This document shows, piece by piece, positions 9,986 through 57,478 of a stretch of 60,905 nucleotides of DNA (position 1 is its first letter; each line of letters opens with the position of its first letter). The stretch is from a virus (lineage: Duplodnaviria > Caudoviricetes), in the IMG/VR virus record IMGVR_UViG_3300012942_000050, positions 1 through 60,905 of that record; one strand, 5' to 3'. Under the pieces are notes generated by a model. That model was not told the origin of the DNA. It saw only the letters and a list, made by a program, of their open reading frames with translations, and did not search any database. A program made the position numbers and the translations under genes.

Positions 9986-9998
9986 CCTTCTGAATAGT

Positions 9999-10019
9999 GC
10001 AAAATAGCGTTAAAATTGC
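9999..10019 (+). promoter_or_regulatory. Copy of 21-bp GCAA-N13-TTGC element
   Basis: GCAAAATAGCGTTAAAATTGC, intergenic, upstream of the thyX unit. Confidence 0.6.
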
Positions 10020-10053
10020 ATAATACATTTTGACGATTTCAGGAGCCTTCAGC

Positions 10054-11725: not shown

Positions 11726-11920
11726 GTGGATGAACTTATCTACCGAATGCCCGAACTCACCAAGGTGGTGGGCCTGGGCAAGACCAAGCTATACGAAATG
11801 ATGGCTGCGGGCCAATTCCCCGCACCCGTGGAACTTGGCCCCAACAGCGTCGGCTGGCGTGCCGACGAGATCAAAGCCTGGGTAGAAAATCTACCCCACC
11901 GAGAATTTTGCTTAGAGTAG
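11726..11920 (+). CDS. alpA: AlpA-family excisionase/regulator
   Basis: VVGLGKTKLYEMMAAGQFPAPVELGPNSVGW is an AlpA signature; convergent with the integrase. Confidence 0.88.
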   Translation: MDELIYRMPELTKVVGLGKTKLYEMMAAGQFPAPVELGPNSVGWRADEIKAWVENLPHREFCLE

Positions 11921-13100
11921 TGCCCAGTTCGGTGAAGGCTCGCTTTCTCTCCGGTATACGCTGTTGGAGTTGATACGTGGCCTTCACCTCATCCTCCTCC
12001 ATATGGTTCAGGCATAGGTCGATCAAGTCCTTGTCGTAGCCTAACTCCCCCATCATCGTGGATCCTGTGCGGCGCAAATCGTGCATCGTCCAGTGTCCTC
12101 CTGGCAGCACCAGATCCGTCGTGTTCCTCCTTCTCTTCAAGGGCTTTTCTCGCCCCTGTCTGTCCGTCAATTCCCGCGTGAATGCCGTAGGCTGAATATA
12201 GGTTCCATCCCGCTTTCCTCTGCCGGGAAACAGCCACCCTTCCGGGCGGTCAGCCAGCAAAATCCCAAACACTGCTTTCGACACCTCGTTCAGGTGTATC
12301 AGATGCTCCTGGCCGTTCTTGGCAAACTCGCCAGGAACCCGCCACGTCCCTTTCTTCAAATCCACATCTTCTGCAGAAACGCTCGCCACCTCAATAGACC
12401 TGGCCATGGCGGACAAAGCCAGCCAACAACCTAGCTGAGTGCGCCTGGGCAGCTTGCCCTTGATGAACAGGCCCGGCAACGACTTCAACTCTTCAGCATC
12501 CAGGACTCGGCTGGATCGACGCCTCTTGCCTCCAATGTCCTTGGCTTTCACCCCTGCGAGAGGATCCCCCACTACCCATCCGCGTGGCGTACCGTAACCA
12601 AACATCTGATGCGCCTCCGCAAGTAGCAGCTTGGCCTGACGAGGGTGCCCAGCAGCTATCACGTCATCCAGAATCGGCATGTAATGGCTGGATCGGATGT
12701 CTTCGGGCGCGACACGCCCTATCACGGGGCTGACGTGTTTTCTGTACCTCCCACTAATGGAGTCCCGGTCATTTTGCCTGCGTCGATGGTCCACTACATA
12801 TTTGGTAAACCACAGGTCGAACATGTCGTCCAGCGTCTTGGGCTTGTCTTTGACAAGTGCCAGGATGGCGGGCGCACGCCTGGCATCGGCAAGCTCTCTG
12901 GCCTGCAGCAAGCTGACGCTCGGATAATGGCCAAGCGTCTGGATGGACGTCGCGCCCGACTTCATGAGGCGAAGGCGCCAGATCTTGGCGCCTGTGGGTT
13001 TTATGCGGAGTTGGAGGCCGTCGCCATCGTTTAGGTTATACTCTTTCGTCTTCGGTTTGGCGGTCCTGACAGCGCGTTCGGAGAGTAGATTTCTGGACAT
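11871..13100 (-). CDS. int: Tyrosine integrase (P4-like, with arm-binding domain)
   Basis: N-terminal DGDGLQLRI..G.K.W arm-binding domain; catalytic R, HDLRRT, LNH and Y. Likely start MSRNLL at 13100, because the longer ORF runs through the arm repeats. Confidence 0.93.
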   Translation of the reverse strand: MSRNLLSERAVRTAKPKTKEYNLNDGDGLQLRIKPTGAKIWRLRLMKSGATSIQTLGHYPSVSLLQARELADARRAPAILALVKDKPKTLDDMFDLWFTKYVVDHRRRQNDRDSISGRYRKHVSPVIGRVAPEDIRSSHYMPILDDVIAAGHPRQAKLLLAEAHQMFGYGTPRGWVVGDPLAGVKAKDIGGKRRRSSRVLDAEELKSLPGLFIKGKLPRRTQLGCWLALSAMARSIEVASVSAEDVDLKKGTWRVPGEFAKNGQEHLIHLNEVSKAVFGILLADRPEGWLFPGRGKRDGTYIQPTAFTRELTDRQGREKPLKRRRNTTDLVLPGGHWTMHDLRRTGSTMMGELGYDKDLIDLCLNHMEEDEVKATYQLQQRIPERKRAFTELGTTLSKILGGVDFLPRL

Positions 13101-13253
13101 TCTTCGGGTCAAATCCGGGTCAAATGAGGATGCAGTCGGGGTCAAAATGGGTCAAATTAGACGCGGATTGCAGTGTACTCCAACGAACTGGAATGAACCA
13201 CTAACCAGAAATTTCTCCGTAGTATCAGGTAGTTAAGTGGCTGGAAAGCCAGT

Positions 13254-13370: not shown

Positions 13371-13401
13371 CGGTCTTCGGGTCAAACCTGGGTCAAATCG
13401 T

Positions 13402-45887: not shown

Positions 45888-45913
45888 TTTGCTAGATTTT
45901 TATTATTTATCAT

Positions 45914-45934
45914 GCAATTTTACCGTGATTTTGC
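45914..45934 (-). promoter_or_regulatory. Copy of 21-bp GCAA-N13-TTGC element at the head of the late operon
   Basis: GCAATTTTACCGTGATTTTGC. Confidence 0.65.
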
Positions 45935-45953
45935 AATATTCGGCAAGAAACGC

Positions 45954-46547
45954 CTACTCTTCCTCGTTCAGGTACTTTTTGTAGAACTTCTCGATTTCTG
46001 CCACACCCTGGACGAAAATATCCGCAGACAGAGCGTTCCGTTCCTTGCGGCTCATCGCCCGCAAGTCTTTATAGGCGTAACCTCGTGCAGTCACCTTGCG
46101 TCTGGCCAGTCGATAAGCGACTGAGTAGTTCAGCCCATAGTCCTCCGCGATCTTCATAGCGGAGGAGCCAGCACCTTCAATCATCGCACAAGCCGCCCGA
46201 AGGACATATATCTTATGTTCCTTGGTTTCCCTGACCTTCTCAGTCCTCGCCACTGACGACTGAGTGGGCTTCCACTGCAGGTTCAGGTACATATGAACCT
46301 GAGCTAGCTTGCTCTCTGACATGCGAGAAGCCTTCCGGAAAGCCAGCCGGAACTTCCCGATCTCCACGCGGTCGGTGAACACCTTGTTCAATCTGCCTTC
46401 CAAGTACTCAATGGACGCATCGACGTTGTACAAGAGGCTACTCATGACTGAGGGAGCCATATCCCACTTTGGCTTCCCCTTCATCGTGCCCTTCTTGATC
46501 TTCTTCAGATCTCGCAGCACGGTCTTAGCGTCCATGTCAAACTCCAT
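45954..46547 (-). CDS. Basic protein with HTH-like segment; candidate transcription regulator
   Basis: SAMKIAEDYGLNYSVAYRLARR resembles an HTH; Lys/Arg-rich; start uncertain (46547 or 46535). Confidence 0.55.
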   Translation of the reverse strand: MEFDMDAKTVLRDLKKIKKGTMKGKPKWDMAPSVMSSLLYNVDASIEYLEGRLNKVFTDRVEIGKFRLAFRKASRMSESKLAQVHMYLNLQWKPTQSSVARTEKVRETKEHKIYVLRAACAMIEGAGSSAMKIAEDYGLNYSVAYRLARRKVTARGYAYKDLRAMSRKERNALSADIFVQGVAEIEKFYKKYLNEEE

Positions 46548-46606
46548 CAATATCGAGCGGTCAATATTAAGGGAATTTCGCAAAAATTGTCCAGTAGTAC
46601 CTTTGG

Positions 46607-47281
46607 CTATACCTTACTGTAGGCCCATTTCCCTACTACCTTACCGTGGACGATCACATCGCCAAGCTGCTCATAGCCAAGCCTGGCCTTGTCGTAGAGC
46701 GGGTTATCGGAGATAACTGTGACGCTACGATCAAACTCTCGCTGGATCCTCTTGATCCTCAACTCATCCATATAGGTAAAGACATACACGGCGTCGGCGT
46801 CGAAAGCGCAGACACTGCGGTCGATGACCAGGGTGTCATGAGAGGTGAAGGTGGGCTCCATGGAGTCACCACGAGGCTGGCAGAGTGCCAGGTTCGACAG
46901 GCTCTTGATGTTCGGGTACTGCGCTTGCACCCAATTAGTTGGGACTTTCACTTGATTCAGGATCTCATATTCGTTGTATGAACCCTCCCCTGCAGCTGGC
47001 GAGAGGGATGATATGGTCAGGAACGCGCCATCCTCCTCAGCAACGTTGGCGTGCTTGGACAAGATGAAGTCCAACGGTGGCATCTCCCACCCTAAGGCAT
47101 CCGTATACCTCTTAGCAACATCCCATGACATGCCCTCATTCTCCCACTTGGCGACAGTGCTCTGGCTAACACCAACCAGGTCTGCAATCGCCTGCGCACT
47201 AGGTTTGGGCCGCAAGGCTGTACGAGTACTCTGAAACCACTTGCCAAGTGCCTGTCGTTCCATCTGAGACGAGGAATTCAT
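46607..47281 (-). CDS. CI-like repressor (XRE HTH + S24 peptidase)
   Basis: IADLVGVSQSTVAKWE HTH; AAGEG cleavage site; GDSMEP Ser and IKRI Lys; AAGGAG RBS. Confidence 0.92.
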   Translation of the reverse strand: MNSSSQMERQALGKWFQSTRTALRPKPSAQAIADLVGVSQSTVAKWENEGMSWDVAKRYTDALGWEMPPLDFILSKHANVAEEDGAFLTISSLSPAAGEGSYNEYEILNQVKVPTNWVQAQYPNIKSLSNLALCQPRGDSMEPTFTSHDTLVIDRSVCAFDADAVYVFTYMDELRIKRIQREFDRSVTVISDNPLYDKARLGYEQLGDVIVHGKVVGKWAYSKV

Positions 47282-47327
47282 AGTGTGCTCCTTAAAGTGA
47301 CGATCAATGCCACGAATAATAGCACAT

Positions 47328-47558
47328 TTATGGCTTAATTATGAGTATAAAGTTTGAAAATATGAAAAATTTTTTGAGCGGACCTGGGTGGACGCGGCCA
47401 AAAAATCCGGGGCAAAAAGCTACCCCGTCATTCACGTGCGGCCTATACAGCCTACATGCAAGGCCAGTAGTACCTAGCACGCCTAGGTAGTATTACTGAA
47501 TGTATCAAATGTAATAGTAAGTAATAGTACTAGATTACCACTCATAAAACAGCCATAA
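47328..47558. promoter_or_regulatory. Divergent immunity region with two inverted 19-bp operator-like sites
   Basis: TTATGGCT-taa-TTATGAGT (47328-47346) and its inverse ACTCATAA-aac-AGCCATAA (47540-47558). The second overlaps TAGATT-N17-CATAAT. Confidence 0.6.
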
Positions 47559-47786
47559 TACATCCATACCTAATCAACAATAGGTACTCGTTCTTTAAGT
47601 TGCCCCGGCCCCGTCGGGGCAAGCCATCGTGATACATCCATGGCGCCGCCAAGTGCGGCCAGTACGCTTGCCATGACCTGCGTACGGGCCGCGCCGATGG
47701 CCGGCAAGAAGCCCGCGCACGTCATGCTTGTATCAGCGCCCATGCCCCATAACAACTATGCGCGGGGACAAGGACGCCGGTAGAAC

Positions 47787-47799
47787 CGCTCATTAACAA
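47787..47799 (+). promoter_or_regulatory. boxA-like antitermination element
   Basis: CGCTCATTAACAA, one mismatch to consensus CGCTCTTTAACAA. Confidence 0.55.
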
Positions 47800-47888
47800 T
47801 CAGACTATCAGAGTACGCGCCATAACAGGACACAGCATCCGCTATGTCTCTAACCCATACGCGCCGCATGGCGCACAAGGATCACACC

Positions 47889-48527
47889 ATGGCAAATATC
47901 ATCAATAAACAAATCGTCAATAGCAAACTCACAAGCTGGGCCGCGCAGCGTCACACGCAACTGGAGGAATCCCCAGCTATCATACAGTCAGCCGTGTATC
48001 ACGGCCTGTTGCATGGCGATTTTTTCAAGTTGCGCGCGTACCTTGCGACGCTTGGAAACACGGAACGCGGCGCGATACTTGCCGCTGTGCTGGCTTGCAG
48101 CAAACTGAAAAAAACGACGAAGCGTGACAACTGCAATGTACCGTTGTTTTTCGAGCGCGTAGGCGGCAACTTGTCGGCCATCTCGGCGGAAAAGGCCATT
48201 GCAGTAGTACCAGACTGGCGCGTAGCTTACGAGGCCAAAAGGGCGGAACAAGCTACCGCGCGGCAAGCCAAAGCGGCTGCAAAGGCCGCCGACAAAAACG
48301 CCGACGAAGCAAAAAAAGCGGCGGAAAAGGCGGCAAAAGGTACGGGGTACGTACACTTTCGTACGGACATCCTTGCCCTGGCGCAAAAAATCCGGCAAGC
48401 GAAAAGCCAGAAACAAACGACGGCAACTGAGTCGGCCTTACTCGACGCCTATCTTGCCTTCGTCGAAACCGCAACAAGCAAAGAAGCACCGAAAGAAGCA
48501 CCGAAGAAAACCGGCACTCACAATTAA
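47889..48527 (+). CDS. First early protein, function unknown
   Basis: AAGGA RBS, 212 aa, HGLLHGD motif, Lys/Ala-rich tail; AAA-rich codon usage unlike the late genes. Confidence 0.75.
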   Translation: MANIINKQIVNSKLTSWAAQRHTQLEESPAIIQSAVYHGLLHGDFFKLRAYLATLGNTERGAILAAVLACSKLKKTTKRDNCNVPLFFERVGGNLSAISAEKAIAVVPDWRVAYEAKRAEQATARQAKAAAKAADKNADEAKKAAEKAAKGTGYVHFRTDILALAQKIRQAKSQKQTTATESALLDAYLAFVETATSKEAPKEAPKKTGTHN

Positions 48528-48540
48528 TGCCGGTTTTCTT
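48504..48540 (+). terminator. Terminator-like 13-bp hairpin over the stop codon
   Basis: AAGAAAACCGGCA-ctcacaattaa-TGCCGGTTTTCTT. Confidence 0.6.
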
Positions 48541-48624
48541 ACCCGCCGTTTTAAGCAAAATAGCGGGTACTTTGCATTAACGGCGCGTACTCTGATAGTC
48601 TGGTTATTACCTGAGTGTATTCTT

Positions 48625-49570
48625 TTTGCCGCAGCATCCGCATGCGGCCTGACAACCTACATATATTCCGGCGTACCTGACAAGGTACGCCCGCGCCCCG
48701 TGCTTTAGTGCGGTATTGGCGAATCTTTCGCAGTACCACGCTCGGCCAGAACTGTGCCTATTGAAAACGCCGTTTGCCTTGTGCATTCGATTGCGTCGAT
48801 ATGGCCAAGTGGCGGCCACGTCATAGCACAACTCCGCACGCAACAAACGTCCCCAATTCCGCACGCCCCCGGCATGCGGAACATTCCACACGGAATCGAC
48901 GTTTACCAATTCCGCACGCCATCGGCATATGCCCAGGCACACGGAATCCCCCATGTCAACAAGCGCCATGCGACGTTGACATAGGCCGTGCGAATCCCTT
49001 CTATGACAAGGGCAGGTGATTGCAGTACCTCATGAACACGGGACGTGAAAAAGGAAACCATCCATTCCATACGCAGCTATCGGTGCTGGTTGCGTGTGTC
49101 CTACGTCAACGTGAATCCGAGCATTCACGGGCGCTTTCAGGAAGGGAATGTCTATCTCACGTGCGCAAGCACGACTCACAGAACACCGTGAGACAAGCGT
49201 GATGGTATAGCCACAGATAACCGGGGCTGTACAGAACGAACCATCATGCCAAGAGGCAATGCAAACCCGACAGTCGAGTGCTGGACAAACGCAACGATCA
49301 GGCTGAGGCCAAGTGGCTGCTTCTCTGTCGTGTGGAATTGATGTGGTGCCTCTACCCGCGACTATTTAGCACGGGCAGCGCACCGGCAAGGCCCTACAAC
49401 CCTTGCCAAGTGTGATTCCATACGAGTCACACATGGTAAGGGTTGCACACCGTGCCTTGAGTAAGCATGCGTATTGCCAAGTGGCGCCTCACTGCCTGGC
49501 GAATGCGCAACCCTAACTCAATTCCGAATCCAATTCCTCACACAGTTGTAACTGCGTGCGGAATTGGAAA
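48625..49570 (+). ncRNA. Candidate large structured non-coding RNA
   Basis: No convincing CDS; at least 12 helices found by eye, several nested and several with G-U pairs on the + strand (see findings). Boundaries approximate. Confidence 0.5.
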
Positions 49571-49829
49571 GTAGATACAAATGTCGATTCAATTCTGAAT
49601 CGGAGTCTGATTTGACTTTTGAATCGAATTGTGATTTGCGGGTACTAGGAATTCCTAGCGGCGGATTTTACTGCCAATAGAACTGGAACGTCAAGCGATT
49701 TCGTGCGGAGTTGGCGCGGAATCGACGTCGGGCGGTCGCGGGGAGCCGCCAAGTGGGGATGGGCGGGAGTTGAGAGTCAATTACGTGTGGAATTGGCCTG
49801 AAATCTGGCTAATTTTTGACCATTTTTCA

Positions 49830-50210
49830 AGCTCCGTTTTATTACCTCCCCTTCCTCCGTTTTTTCGTCGATTTTTTGGGCGAATTTTCTGGTCAATTTT
49901 TGACCACAAAAAACGGAGGTTGAACCCCCAAAAAACGGAGGTTGCTCGCCCACCCCAAGGTTTAGGAACGGAGGTATTGGAACGGAGGTTGCCTTTTTCT
50001 TTATATATATTAAGAAAATCAATTACTTATATATATAAATATTTCGCAGATTTTCAGTTACAAAAACCACACGTGGGAAAAGCTGAATTCGTGCAAAACC
50101 AAAGCTGAACCTTCATTGCGTTTCCCCCGACCTCCTTTTGGTTTTTGGGCACTTTTTAGAATCCGCCTTGGAAATCAAGCACTTGGCAACCTCCACCCAG
50201 TTCCTCCGTT
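49830..50210. other. Origin-of-replication-like region
   Basis: AACGGAGGT at 49912, 49934, 49967, 49981; inverted CTCCGTT copies at 49832, 49855, 50204; AT-rich tract ~49994-50045; IHF consensus at 50017-50029 and 50173-50185. Confidence 0.6.
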
Positions 50211-50439
50211 TTTTCGTGTGATTTGACGGGTGATCAACCTTGGGAGCCGGGCGCCAATTCCGCACGCAACAGCCCCCGCCAAGCCCCAATTACGGGTACA
50301 TACACCCCAAACATACCCCTGAGACCTTGCTAGACCGCCCCAGACGCCCGCAACCCTCCCACCCGCTACCTACGTAGCCATCCACCCTTCCGGCGCCTTG
50401 TGCGCCCGCATTTTCAGTCCTTCAACCTTGGAGACAACC

Positions 50440-50763
50440 ATGTCCAAACTCACTCGAATCCCGAAATCCGTCCAGATCCAGCACCTGCCCTACCTTGGCG
50501 ACCCGAATTTCCGCCCGCAGCCGGTGTTGCGAAAATACCGCATATTCCAGAACGTCGATGGCGTCATGGTCTCCCGTGGCCCCGGTGCCACCACCTTGGA
50601 ACGTGCCTGCGAACGCGCCAGGGAGCTGTCCAATCGCACCCGCAGCAAGGTCGCCGTCTACGATCAAACTCGATCCAGTGGCGAGCGCATGATCAGGCTC
50701 TTCAACAGTGGCGTGGACTACCTGGCCACCCTTGGCACATCCGAGCAGGTCGCCGTCCGTTAA
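50440..50763 (+). CDS. Hypothetical early protein
   Basis: GGAG RBS before MSKLTRIP. Confidence 0.7.
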   Translation: MSKLTRIPKSVQIQHLPYLGDPNFRPQPVLRKYRIFQNVDGVMVSRGPGATTLERACERARELSNRTRSKVAVYDQTRSSGERMIRLFNSGVDYLATLGTSEQVAVR

Positions 50764-50811
50764 TGCAATATCAACGCTGTTTTGCATTACAATCACCTAC
50801 CAATTCCGCAT

Positions 50812-50872
50812 GCAATCGACGTCTAGCACGCAATCGACGTCTAGCACGCAATCGACGTCGAACTTGCAATAG
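50812..50872. repeat. 18-bp tandem repeat
   Basis: GCAATCGACGTCTAGCAC x2, then GCAATCGACGTCGAACTT and a degenerate fourth unit. Confidence 0.85.
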
Positions 50873-50941
50873 AAGACGACGACGTGCTTGCAACCCTGCG
50901 TCGCCTGTTGCGTGTGGAATTGGACCCGAATGGAGAACACC

Positions 50942-54188: not shown

Positions 54189-54442
54189 GTGGCCAACTCC
54201 GCACGCAATTCCCCAACGCCACCGACGACGAGTGGCAGAAGATCGAACGCCTCTACGACCTCTGCAACGAGCGCCATTTCGTCGCCTTCACGCGAGGCAA
54301 CGCCATGACTGAGATTGCAGTGCTGGCCGACTTCAACCTGACGGCGGACGAAATGCGCAAGGAGATTCGGCGCATTGTCAGCGAGTGCGATGCCTCGATA
54401 TATCTGCGCCGCGTCAAACCCAGGAAGGAATCCCATGAGTAA
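54185..54442 (+). CDS. Hypothetical protein
   Basis: GGAG RBS and ATGA overlap. Confidence 0.65.
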   Translation: MSGQLRTQFPNATDDEWQKIERLYDLCNERHFVAFTRGNAMTEIAVLADFNLTADEMRKEIRRIVSECDASIYLRRVKPRKESHE

Positions 54443-54818: not shown

Positions 54819-55008
54819 GAAATCCGAAACCATCCTGATCTGGCTGGCCGCACTTGTTGCGGCCATTCTTTTATCCAACCCGTCCCACGCCTTAGAGTCT
54901 GGCCCGTACCTGGAGCGTAGCCTGACCTGGACGTGTGACACCACTTGGCGAGTCGGCCCGTACCTGGAGTCCAGCTTGTCCCATCACGTTAATGAGGAGC
55001 TGATATGA
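54811..55008 (+). CDS. Small signal-peptide-like protein with internal duplication
   Basis: MSKKSETILIWLAALVAAILLSNPSHA; GPYLE repeated. Confidence 0.5.
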   Translation: MSKKSETILIWLAALVAAILLSNPSHALESGPYLERSLTWTCDTTWRVGPYLESSLSHHVNEELI

Positions 55009-57351: not shown

Positions 57352-57478
57352 AGACCTGAAGGATTTGATGTCGATTCAAGCTGCGGTCATCGTCGCCACG
57401 CTGTGGATGGTGGGTATGACGACCGTGTTTGATGTGGGCATGGAGTTCGTGGCGCACCTTGTCGGTGCGCCTTTTTGA
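57344..57478 (+). CDS. 44-aa hydrophobic peptide (not in ORF track)
   Basis: GGAG RBS; MPEDLKDLMSIQAAVIVATLWMVGMTTVFDVGMEFVAHLVGAPF. Confidence 0.5.
   Translation: MPEDLKDLMSIQAAVIVATLWMVGMTTVFDVGMEFVAHLVGAPF

Follow-up and report, generated by a model that had tools for sequence, protein, structure and literature searches.

Results

The Inverted Repeat

The DNA analyzed here (the window) is the whole of the soil-derived IMG/VR virus record IMGVR_UViG_3300012942_000050, 60,905 bases in length, with an estimated completeness of 92% (i.e., with ~8% missing). It belongs to a temperate phage, and the element of interest is a long-range inverted repeat whose two arms bracket a 212-residue protein gene together with a terminator-like hairpin. 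To the left of the repeat is an immunity region, marked by a cI gene on the minus strand. A codon-usage score trained on 13 long open reading frames (ORFs) assigns every gene between 47.8 and 60.9 kb to the plus strand, which places the repeat at the start of a rightward early operon. It probably extends beyond the right end of the record, resuming at the left end, and would then total ~25 kb.

The first-pass annotation of this DNA had described a perfect 21-bp inverted repeat with arms ~760 nt apart, extendable leftwards by a U-G pair and enclosing both the gene and a 13-bp terminator-like hairpin at 48504-48540, and all of this is borne out. The left core (47801-47821) is exactly complementary to the right core (48582-48602), T47800 stands opposite G48603, and the gene and hairpin are both present as described. 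A repeat search extends the arms to 28 nt (47794-47821 and 48582-48609; 93% complementary), with exactly 760 nt between them. Nor is the repeat a product of chance: if as many as three mismatches are allowed, the 21-mer is found at exactly two sites in the window, a number of matches reached in none of 100 shuffles, and the longest perfect inverted repeat with arms at most 3 kb apart measures 21 nt in the window versus 12-18 nt in 30 shuffles. Both arms are untranslated, the left one lying 67 nt 5' of the start codon and the right one 54 nt 3' of the stop codon, and the right arm begins 41 nt past the last base of the terminator hairpin. The ribosome-binding site of the gene is located outside the arms, 56 nt downstream of the left one. 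No internal symmetry was found within either arm. Inward extension of the repeat, as a duplicated promoter module, was considered and rejected, the flank alignments being non-significant (p = 0.13 for the interior and 0.27 for the exterior).

Predicted Pairing of the Arms in RNA

As all genes from 47.8 to 60.9 kb are coded on the plus strand, both arms would be present in one sense transcript. Each arm by itself is predicted to be unstructured, with folding z-scores of +0.75 for the left arm (47786-47830) and +0.62 for the right arm. When paired, they give a helix of ~37 pairs with three interruptions and a computed folding energy of -55.7 kcal/mol. When 47566-48700 is folded, the 21 core pairs have probabilities of 0.998-1.0; the same helix frames the minimum free energy (MFE) structure of 47780-48620, and it is dominant in every fold computed. 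Because the arms are outside the ORF, ribosomes would not be expected to unwind their pairing, and because the right arm lies past the terminator, the helix requires read-through. The valley of RNase III accommodates ~22 bp, as given in a passage of PMC6212723; measured against this length, the helix would be a double-stranded RNA substrate of RNase III size.

The reading that fits the locus best, to which we assign a rough probability of 0.4, is that the arms form a leader-trailer RNA helix on read-through transcripts and that this helix is a nuclease substrate. We favor it because the arms are non-random, untranslated, singly unstructured, and jointly dominant in the folds; because the right arm is found beyond a terminator-like hairpin, an arrangement that recalls the logic of the lambda sib site (see Discussion); because the same leader holds two boxA-like motifs on the sense strand; and because processive antitermination is used in settings like those offered here by a 1.8-kb untranslated stretch and by terminator-like hairpins farther along the operon (at 54845 and 57451). 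Transcripts that end at the 48504-48540 terminator would lack the right arm, leaving the leader free. Read-through, whether by antitermination or by leakage, would add the right arm, which could then pair with the left arm 760 nt upstream and loop out the 212-residue protein gene and its terminator. The resulting duplex of 28-37 bp would be of the size and quality that is cut by a double-strand-specific endonuclease such as RNase III, and cleavage would split the RNA into the nut-like leader, the mRNA of the first gene, and the long untranslated RNA downstream, with the ends of the first-gene mRNA still joined after cleavage by half of the helix. Read-through, formation of the helix in vivo, cleavage, and an effect of cleavage on expression are the steps that we infer.

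The Enclosed Gene, Its Terminator, and the Region Downstream

The enclosed 212-residue protein gene is real. An AAGGA ribosome-binding site is located 7 nt before its ATG, and its frame scores 0.21 bits per codon (versus 0.18 for cI), with the other five frames all negative. Its product appears from sequence comparison to be a member of a small uncharacterized family: a word-based search of 5.8 billion proteins returned only its own cluster, and when 1.84 billion representatives were searched in full with phmmer, four remote homologs (P0002-P0005; 220-253 residues, 28-30% identity) came up that share with it ten invariant columns, among them an HG(D/N) motif and a conserved tryptophan. The protein had no match in Pfam, PHROG, or the sequences of the Protein Data Bank (PDB), a search of the ESM Atlas returned only unnamed viral clusters, and searches of viral contigs and metagenome contigs gave pattern matches and no relative. 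Used as queries, the alignment of the family (A1) and homolog P0002 retrieved nothing from viral contigs, and no match was obtained with P0002 and P0004 against phages or with P0004 against plasmids. A structure model based on the five-sequence alignment, with a predicted local distance difference test (pLDDT) score of 78.8, is mostly helical; its sole fold neighbors are uncharacterized proteins from phages of Proteobacteria, at a template modeling (TM) score of ~0.3, and a Foldseek search of the model against the PDB gave none at E <= 0.001. An AlphaFold2 model made from the single sequence (pLDDT 57) was not used.

At its 3' end the gene carries an exact 12-nt tandem repeat, AAAGAAGCACCG (2.2 copies, 48480-48505), which encodes the residues KEAPKEAPK at the C terminus of the protein and runs into the stem of the terminator hairpin. 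In this stem an A-tract pairs with a U-tract around a CCGGCA core, and the 3' side ends in TTTTCTT. Judged by these features, the hairpin is probably an intrinsic terminator that works in both directions. A terminator scan skipped it because its loop, at 11 nt, exceeds 8 nt.

Beyond the right arm lies the ~1.8-kb untranslated stretch, in which no ORF has a positive coding score and which looks, from its repeats, like a replication origin or control region outside any gene. The asymmetric 13-mer CAATTCCGCACGC, at up to two mismatches, has 13 sites in the window versus 2.27 expected, in both orientations; 11 of these fall within 48829-50922, the remaining two being at 54194 and 58178, and 9 of the 13 are inside the untranslated stretch. 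The CAATTCCGCACGC sites are likely to bind a putative regulator or initiator. The paired 13-mer pattern was also sought elsewhere; the single locus retrieved (L019) was rejected as a chance match inside a high-GC ORF. The stretch further contains AACGGAGGTT iterons at 49829-49990 (four direct plus one inverted copy), T-rich 12-mers, and an AT-rich block at ~50000-50045. Coordinates of the features are collected in Table 1.

Table 1. Features of the Window Referred to in the Text
Feature	Position	Strand	Remarks
DNA polymerase, ligase, SbcC-like, thymidylate synthase, and HNH genes	0.2 to 11.7 kb	+	
Integrase	11871-13145		Beside tRNA-Pro
Tail, head, and terminase genes	13.4 to 45.4 kb	-	
CI-like repressor gene	46607..47281	-	Helix-turn-helix plus S24 peptidase domain; Pfam Peptidase_S24, E 6.6e-16; PHROG transcriptional repressor / CI-like repressor
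Operator-like repeated GTAATAGTAA units	47487-47529		Tandem unit by Tandem Repeats Finder; adjoin the candidate promoter
Candidate rightward early promoter, TAGATT-N17-CATAAT	47531..47559	+	Read from sequence; weak, 8/12 consensus positions; absent from promoter scan
Nut-like site	47590..47622	+	boxA-like GTTCTTTAAGT at 47590-47600, then 10-bp G+C-rich hairpin at 47600-47622
boxA-like motif CGCTCATTAACAA of the first-pass annotation	47787..47799	+	11/13 bases paired in the extended long-range helix
Left arm	47794..47821	+	Perfect core 47801-47821; would-be 5' leader strand in RNA
Enclosed gene, 212 residues	47889..48527	+	First gene of the early operon; alternative starts 47868 or 47844
Terminator-like hairpin	48504-48516 / 48528-48540	+	13-bp stem; 11-nt loop with the TAA stop codon
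Exact copy of the phage-wide motif	48555..48577	+	Between terminator and right arm; ends 4 nt before the arm
Right arm	48582..48609	+	Perfect core 48582-48602; would-be trailer strand in RNA; weaker pairing on to ~48623
Untranslated stretch, ~1.8 kb	48610..50397	+	No ORF with positive coding score

boxA-like Motifs in the Leader

The first-pass annotation had also placed a boxA-like motif, CGCTCATTAACAA, directly ahead of the left arm. The position holds, the motif ending 1 nt before the core of the arm, but it misses the consensus core and is not significant on its own: when up to two mismatches are allowed, the 13-mer rrn-type consensus matches the window once, and at least one match is obtained in 62 of 100 shuffles. 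The functional boxA consensus of gamma-proteobacteria is quoted as GYTCTTTAANA (PMC5725501). The T at core position T5, where CGCTCATTAACAA has an A, is U/T in every other boxA consulted, namely in the E. coli form UGCUCUUUAACA and the B. subtilis form (as presented in PMC13753749) and in the boxA of the Legionella CRISPR array in the portion of PMC7862264 that deals with it. In the lambda nutR mutants described in a section of PMC2800207, the change U39G lowers the NusB:NusE affinity from 90 nM to 1.9 uM. Spacing differs as well: the leader strand of the rrn helix (boxC) follows boxA at 18-19 nt in 98% of Enterobacteriaceae, by the figures excerpted from PMC10250234, whereas here the core arm follows CGCTCATTAACAA after only 1 nt, the motif abuts and overlaps the helix, and a boxC sequence is absent. 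By these tests of consensus and spacing, CGCTCATTAACAA is not a member of the boxA family.

A better candidate is found 200 nt upstream of CGCTCATTAACAA and ~25 nt past the candidate early promoter. There, the motif GTTCTTTAAGT has an intact TCTTTAA core and differs from GYTCTTTAANA only at the last base, the consensus being gamma-proteobacterial and perhaps not that of the host. It is followed by a hairpin that is present in both the MFE and the centroid folds, and the GTTCTTTAAGT stretch itself is unpaired in the centroid. Motif and hairpin together have the layout of a nut site, and we refer to the pair as nut-like. At up to one mismatch, GYTCTTTAANA occurs five times in the window versus 2.67 expected (five are reached in 16 of 100 shuffles), and a pair of boxA-like motifs on the same strand within 250 nt of each other is seen in 25 of 1000 block shuffles. 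The Nus part of the reading rests more on this upstream site than on CGCTCATTAACAA.

Strong plus-strand terminator-like hairpins are also found within the early gene block, at 54845-54865 and 57451-57471; with these, the block either comprises several transcription units or requires antitermination. With the terminator at 48504, the terminator-like hairpins at 54845 and 57451, and 1.8 kb of untranslated RNA, the operon has a use for processive antitermination. By analogy with rrn operons and CRISPR arrays, as these cases are set out in part of PMC7862264, the 1.8-kb untranslated RNA would otherwise be exposed to Rho.

Points Weighing against a Leader-Trailer Helix

A number of points count against the leader-trailer helix. 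Its support comes from sequence and computed folding, a search for RNA sequencing runs that contain this DNA having listed none, and what appears to be a good terminator must be read through before the helix can form. The regulatory motif at 48555-48577 (see below) suggests that a separate transcript may start at the right arm. The boxA and RNase III comparisons use rules established in other bacteria, which may not be those of the host. Within CGCTCATTAACAA, the 11-mer GCTCATTAACA (47788-47798) has its one mismatch to GYTCTTTAANA, itself perhaps not the consensus of the host, at the core position T5, where it carries an A; by the letters of the lambda nutR mutants G35U, C38A, and U39G, this position would map to U39. 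The sole relative, from sequencing run X2, is too close for covariation to be assessed, 226 of 227 residues of the protein being identical. Finally, the 21 core pairs include no G-U pair and the inner edge of the repeat is sharp, and the repeat therefore resembles identity at the DNA level, as left by recent duplication or recombination, more than a helix selected as RNA.

A different explanation is that the repeat is a neutral remnant without function, left by a recent inverted duplication or a template switch when the cassette was inserted. A core free of G-U pairs is what such an event would give, and the absence of significant similarity in the flanks (p = 0.13 and 0.27, as above) agrees with it. 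However, the untranslated placement of the arms around a gene plus its terminator is precise, there is a boxA-like motif of the leader right beside the left arm, and a helix of -55.7 kcal/mol in an early mRNA could hardly be ignored by the cell; even an accidental repeat would still affect the RNA. A functionless remnant is thus in our view unlikely, although it deserves to be kept in mind.

A Phage-wide Motif Next to the Right Arm

The interval from the terminator to the right arm contains an exact copy of the sequence GCAAAAYAGCG-N6-TTGCAT, which, at up to three mismatches, has nine sites in the window (9999, 19648, 21424, 28674, 45870, 45912, 48555, 50763, and 53802) versus 0.30 expected; nine sites were reached in none of 100 shuffles. 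Seven of the nine share the orientation of the adjoining genes, and six (9999, 19648, 28674, 45870, 45912, and 53802) directly precede gene blocks of the same orientation. The best copies read nTGCAA-N16-CATAAT (i.e., they are sigma-70-like with a conserved spacer), and the motif probably represents either a family of promoters whose spacer is conserved or a site for a regulator. The 48555 copy on the plus strand and its inverted twin on the minus strand (50763-50785) face each other across the untranslated region. In viral contigs, the motif was found at 11 loci, none of which resembles the window by blastn. The longest inverted repeat of the window at any spacing (9992-10028 and 45905-45941; 37 nt, 84% complementary, arms 36 kb apart) consists of two copies of this motif, one per strand, that precede gene blocks of opposite orientation.

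As a promoter, the 48555 copy would set the start of transcription at ~48588, within the right arm. The right arm might then act in trans: an RNA made from this promoter (48555-48577), whose 5' end would comprise most of the right arm, would pair with the left arm in the early leader, beside the boxA-like motif, with cleavage, termination, or loss of antitermination as the outcome. RNA-based immunity of this general kind is a feature of phages P4 and P1/P7, which provide the model for pairing in trans. The strongly non-random motif family (9 versus 0.30 expected), the placement of six copies upstream of gene blocks in their own orientation, the exactness of the 48555 copy and its position 4 nt short of the right arm, and the twin at 50763-50785 that points back at the same untranslated region are all consistent with an antisense RNA. 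What argues against it is the quality of the promoter: in the copies at 48555 and 50763 both the -10 element (CATTAA, without the final T) and the -35 element are poor, a promoter scan lists no plus-strand promoter there, and the motif, which holds an inverted TGCAA...TTGCA, may serve as a protein site instead. From the sequence, we regard antisense control in trans as rather unlikely.

Alternatives at the DNA Level

The first-pass annotation had proposed DNA inversion or cassette exchange as the alternative to an RNA helix. In such a scheme, the arms would be crossover sites at which a site-specific recombinase inverts the 816-bp cassette of gene plus terminator, or else the scars or ends of a mobile cassette. 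Invertible segments such as those of Gin, Cin, and Hin and the promoter invertons are typically a few hundred bases long and lie between inverted repeats of 20-30 bp. The phage segment, also of a few hundred bases between inverted repeats, is similar in layout, but it is located in an immunity and early region and not at tail-fiber genes. Three points favor this scheme: perfect identity that ends abruptly, as over the 21 bp here, is typical of recombination sites; what lies between the arms is a self-contained unit of one gene and its terminator; and a recombinase gene could lie in the ~8% of the phage that is missing from the record. In the record itself (92% complete), however, the resolvase/invertase family PF00239 has no match, and PF00589 has one, the integrase, which is the sole tyrosine recombinase and is found 35 kb away. 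The arm 21-mer has no further copy in the window and none in the IMG/VR viral contigs, and no target-site duplication is found beside either the 21-nt or the 28-nt arms, so that neither of these two hallmarks of a transposon or miniature inverted-repeat transposable element was found in the sequences searched. The terminator hairpin, moreover, is symmetric, and inversion would not switch termination.

The assembled contigs bear on the same question. Run X1 provided a 34-kb contig, possibly from the source sample, and run X2 a 5.3-kb contig from an independent soil sample (depth 554); runs X3 and X4 gave only short contigs of 112-305 nt. The X1 and X2 contigs cross both arms in one orientation, with no strand-change joints, and the inverted orientation is absent from both, contigs being prone to drop rare forms. 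Relative to the window, X2 has replaced segments at 47436-47529 and 47650-47722 and is replaced or densely substituted at 47093-47216, the rest being ~96-97% identical. Among the first 40 of its 175 differences, these 40 all being left of 47217, the changes in cI are concentrated where the gene codes for its N-terminal domain. From this pattern, together with the changed operator region, X2 looks like a heteroimmune sister phage. The X2 contig is collinear with the window from 47723 to 50884, and at the level of collinearity the block of CGCTCATTAACAA, arms, gene, and terminator is therefore common to two phages; the replaced segments end at 47722, not at the arm. With no invertase gene and a single orientation in the contigs of two samples, inversion or cassette exchange thus receives no support from our data, and we hold recombination sites or cassette ends to be quite improbable.

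The arms could also be protein-binding sites, with one regulator, possibly the enclosed protein, binding the 21-bp sequence on either side to loop the DNA or block transcription. The phage does use repeated asymmetric DNA sites elsewhere (the 13-mer CAATTCCGCACGC, 13 sites versus 2.27 expected), and the right arm is at the expected start point of the promoter-like motif. Yet there are only two copies of the arm, neither is internally symmetric, both are unlike the operator-like repeats at 47487-47529 and unlike CAATTCCGCACGC, and 21 identical bases exceed what a protein site needs. Binding of a protein to the arms as their function seems to us very improbable.

The Phage and Its Immunity Region

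Similarities to known phages are distant. In a phage search, the best identities of the terminase (31.5%) and the polymerase (26.7%) are both to Vibrio phages, and one tail protein reaches 51.6%. With the tail protein as query, viral contigs and metagenome contigs each gave three loci at 47-50% identity, with one record of 182,632 nt common to both, and no synteny beyond the tail genes was found at these loci. A blastn search of phages with 46500-50500 as query gave no match, and CI found no relative in genome contigs or viral contigs. The phage genes have Shine-Dalgarno sites, and phages of Proteobacteria account for the distant matches. As far as these comparisons indicate, the phage is far from any studied lineage, with no close relatives known. 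The 3' half of its tRNA-Pro has no exact match in 185,579 species genomes. This tRNA-Pro(TGG), next to the integrase, is flanked by GGTCAAA..GGGTCAAAT repeats at 13140-13157 and 13380-13398, which are probably the arm-type integrase sites of attP. Over the window, tRNA alone reaches its Rfam gathering score; below gathering there are chance-level matches only, such as Thr_leader (20.8 bits) over the terminator hairpin.

Between the operator-like repeats and the cI start codon is a minus-strand terminator (47408-47427; 8-bp stem and T-run), preceded by two small hairpins (47430-47500); this structure is either an attenuator in the cI leader or the mark of a small leftward RNA. A 61-residue minus-strand ORF at 47570-47755 was rejected as a gene on its coding score of -0.05.

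Discussion

An rrn-like architecture, as the first-pass annotation had it, is only partly supported: the length of the helix fits, while the boxA consensus and the boxA-boxC spacing do not, and the likeness seems, as far as sequence can tell, to be one of design and not of membership. In the sections of PMC10250234 and PMC8632103 that treat it, the rrn leader-trailer helix has 25-40 bp and is the primary RNase III site, and a boxA-anchored complex is proposed to deliver its leader strand to the trailer. As in the E. coli 16S precursor, a boxA-like leader motif here precedes one strand of a helix, the 5' one, and hundreds of bases are transcribed before the 3' strand follows; the phage helix, with 28 nt at 93% complementarity and ~37 pairs, is within the 25-40 bp range. 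In contrast to rrn, the phage helix encloses a protein gene and a terminator and not a structural RNA, its loop is 760 nt versus ~1.6 kb, and its motif abuts the helix, misses the consensus core, and comes without boxC.

A second parallel is with the early leaders of phage lambda. There, nut sites direct N-dependent antitermination and the N leader is processed by RNase III. Like these, the phage leader comes right after a candidate early promoter beside a repressor gene and has a boxA-like motif followed by a hairpin (47590-47622), and the first gene holds the place that N holds after nutL. The differences are that the first gene encodes a 212-residue protein without an arginine-rich N terminus, that the hairpin, a 10-bp G+C stem with a 3-nt loop, is unlike the boxB stem and loop, and that the phage helix is long range whereas the hairpin of the N leader is local. 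No family match to an N-like antiterminator was found for the first gene product, other small early ORFs being covered only in part.

At the lambda sib site, a double-stranded RNA site is completed only on transcripts that read through a terminator. In arrangement, the phage repeat would be similar: its double-stranded site would likewise be complete only after read-through, and terminated and antiterminated transcripts would meet different fates. It differs in that sib is a local hairpin extending the terminator, whereas the partner strand in the phage is 760 nt upstream, across a gene. Retroregulation of int by sib is mentioned in PMC5300877.

Pairing between untranslated regions (UTRs) of one mRNA is also found in cellular genes. 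In the examples summarized in part of PMC7821165, 5'UTR-3'UTR pairing makes icaR of S. aureus a substrate of RNase III and protects the mRNA of hbs in B. subtilis. The common element is a pair of complementary untranslated stretches on either side of a coding sequence; as described there, however, the icaR and hbs pairings involve few bases (a UCCCC motif or 14 nt) and form inside the terminated mRNA, compared with 21-37 bp in the phage, and the icaR pairing covers the ribosome-binding site, whereas in the phage this site is free and read-through is needed.

A bolder version would have the phage copy the logic of an rRNA operon for an mRNA, from Nus/boxA read-through through delivery of the arm to excision by RNase III. 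A Nus/boxA complex on the leader would carry RNA polymerase through the first terminator and the 1.8-kb untranslated stretch and would at the same time keep the leader arm at the RNA exit channel, ready to capture the trailer arm the moment it emerges. RNase III would then excise the first-gene mRNA co-transcriptionally and release a separate RNA over the origin-like region, and the helix would swallow the boxA-like motif, so that the complex would be assembled only once. We consider this full scheme a long shot; if true, it would be the first leader-trailer delivery mechanism outside rRNA.

Taken as a whole, the repeat is a well-founded sequence observation, and the mechanism built on it is a proposal. 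To our knowledge, long-range helices that loop out a whole gene, although well known for rRNA, are hardly known for bacterial or phage mRNAs. If the helix forms and is cut, it would be a compact switch, with the fate of an early transcript depending on whether it was terminated or antiterminated, and the locus would be a natural place to test the idea of boxA-anchored delivery of a leader to a distant trailer. If instead the right arm heads a transcript of its own, it may add an RNA-based layer of control beside the protein repressor. Either way, the repeat occupies the decision point of a temperate phage whose lineage has no studied relatives.

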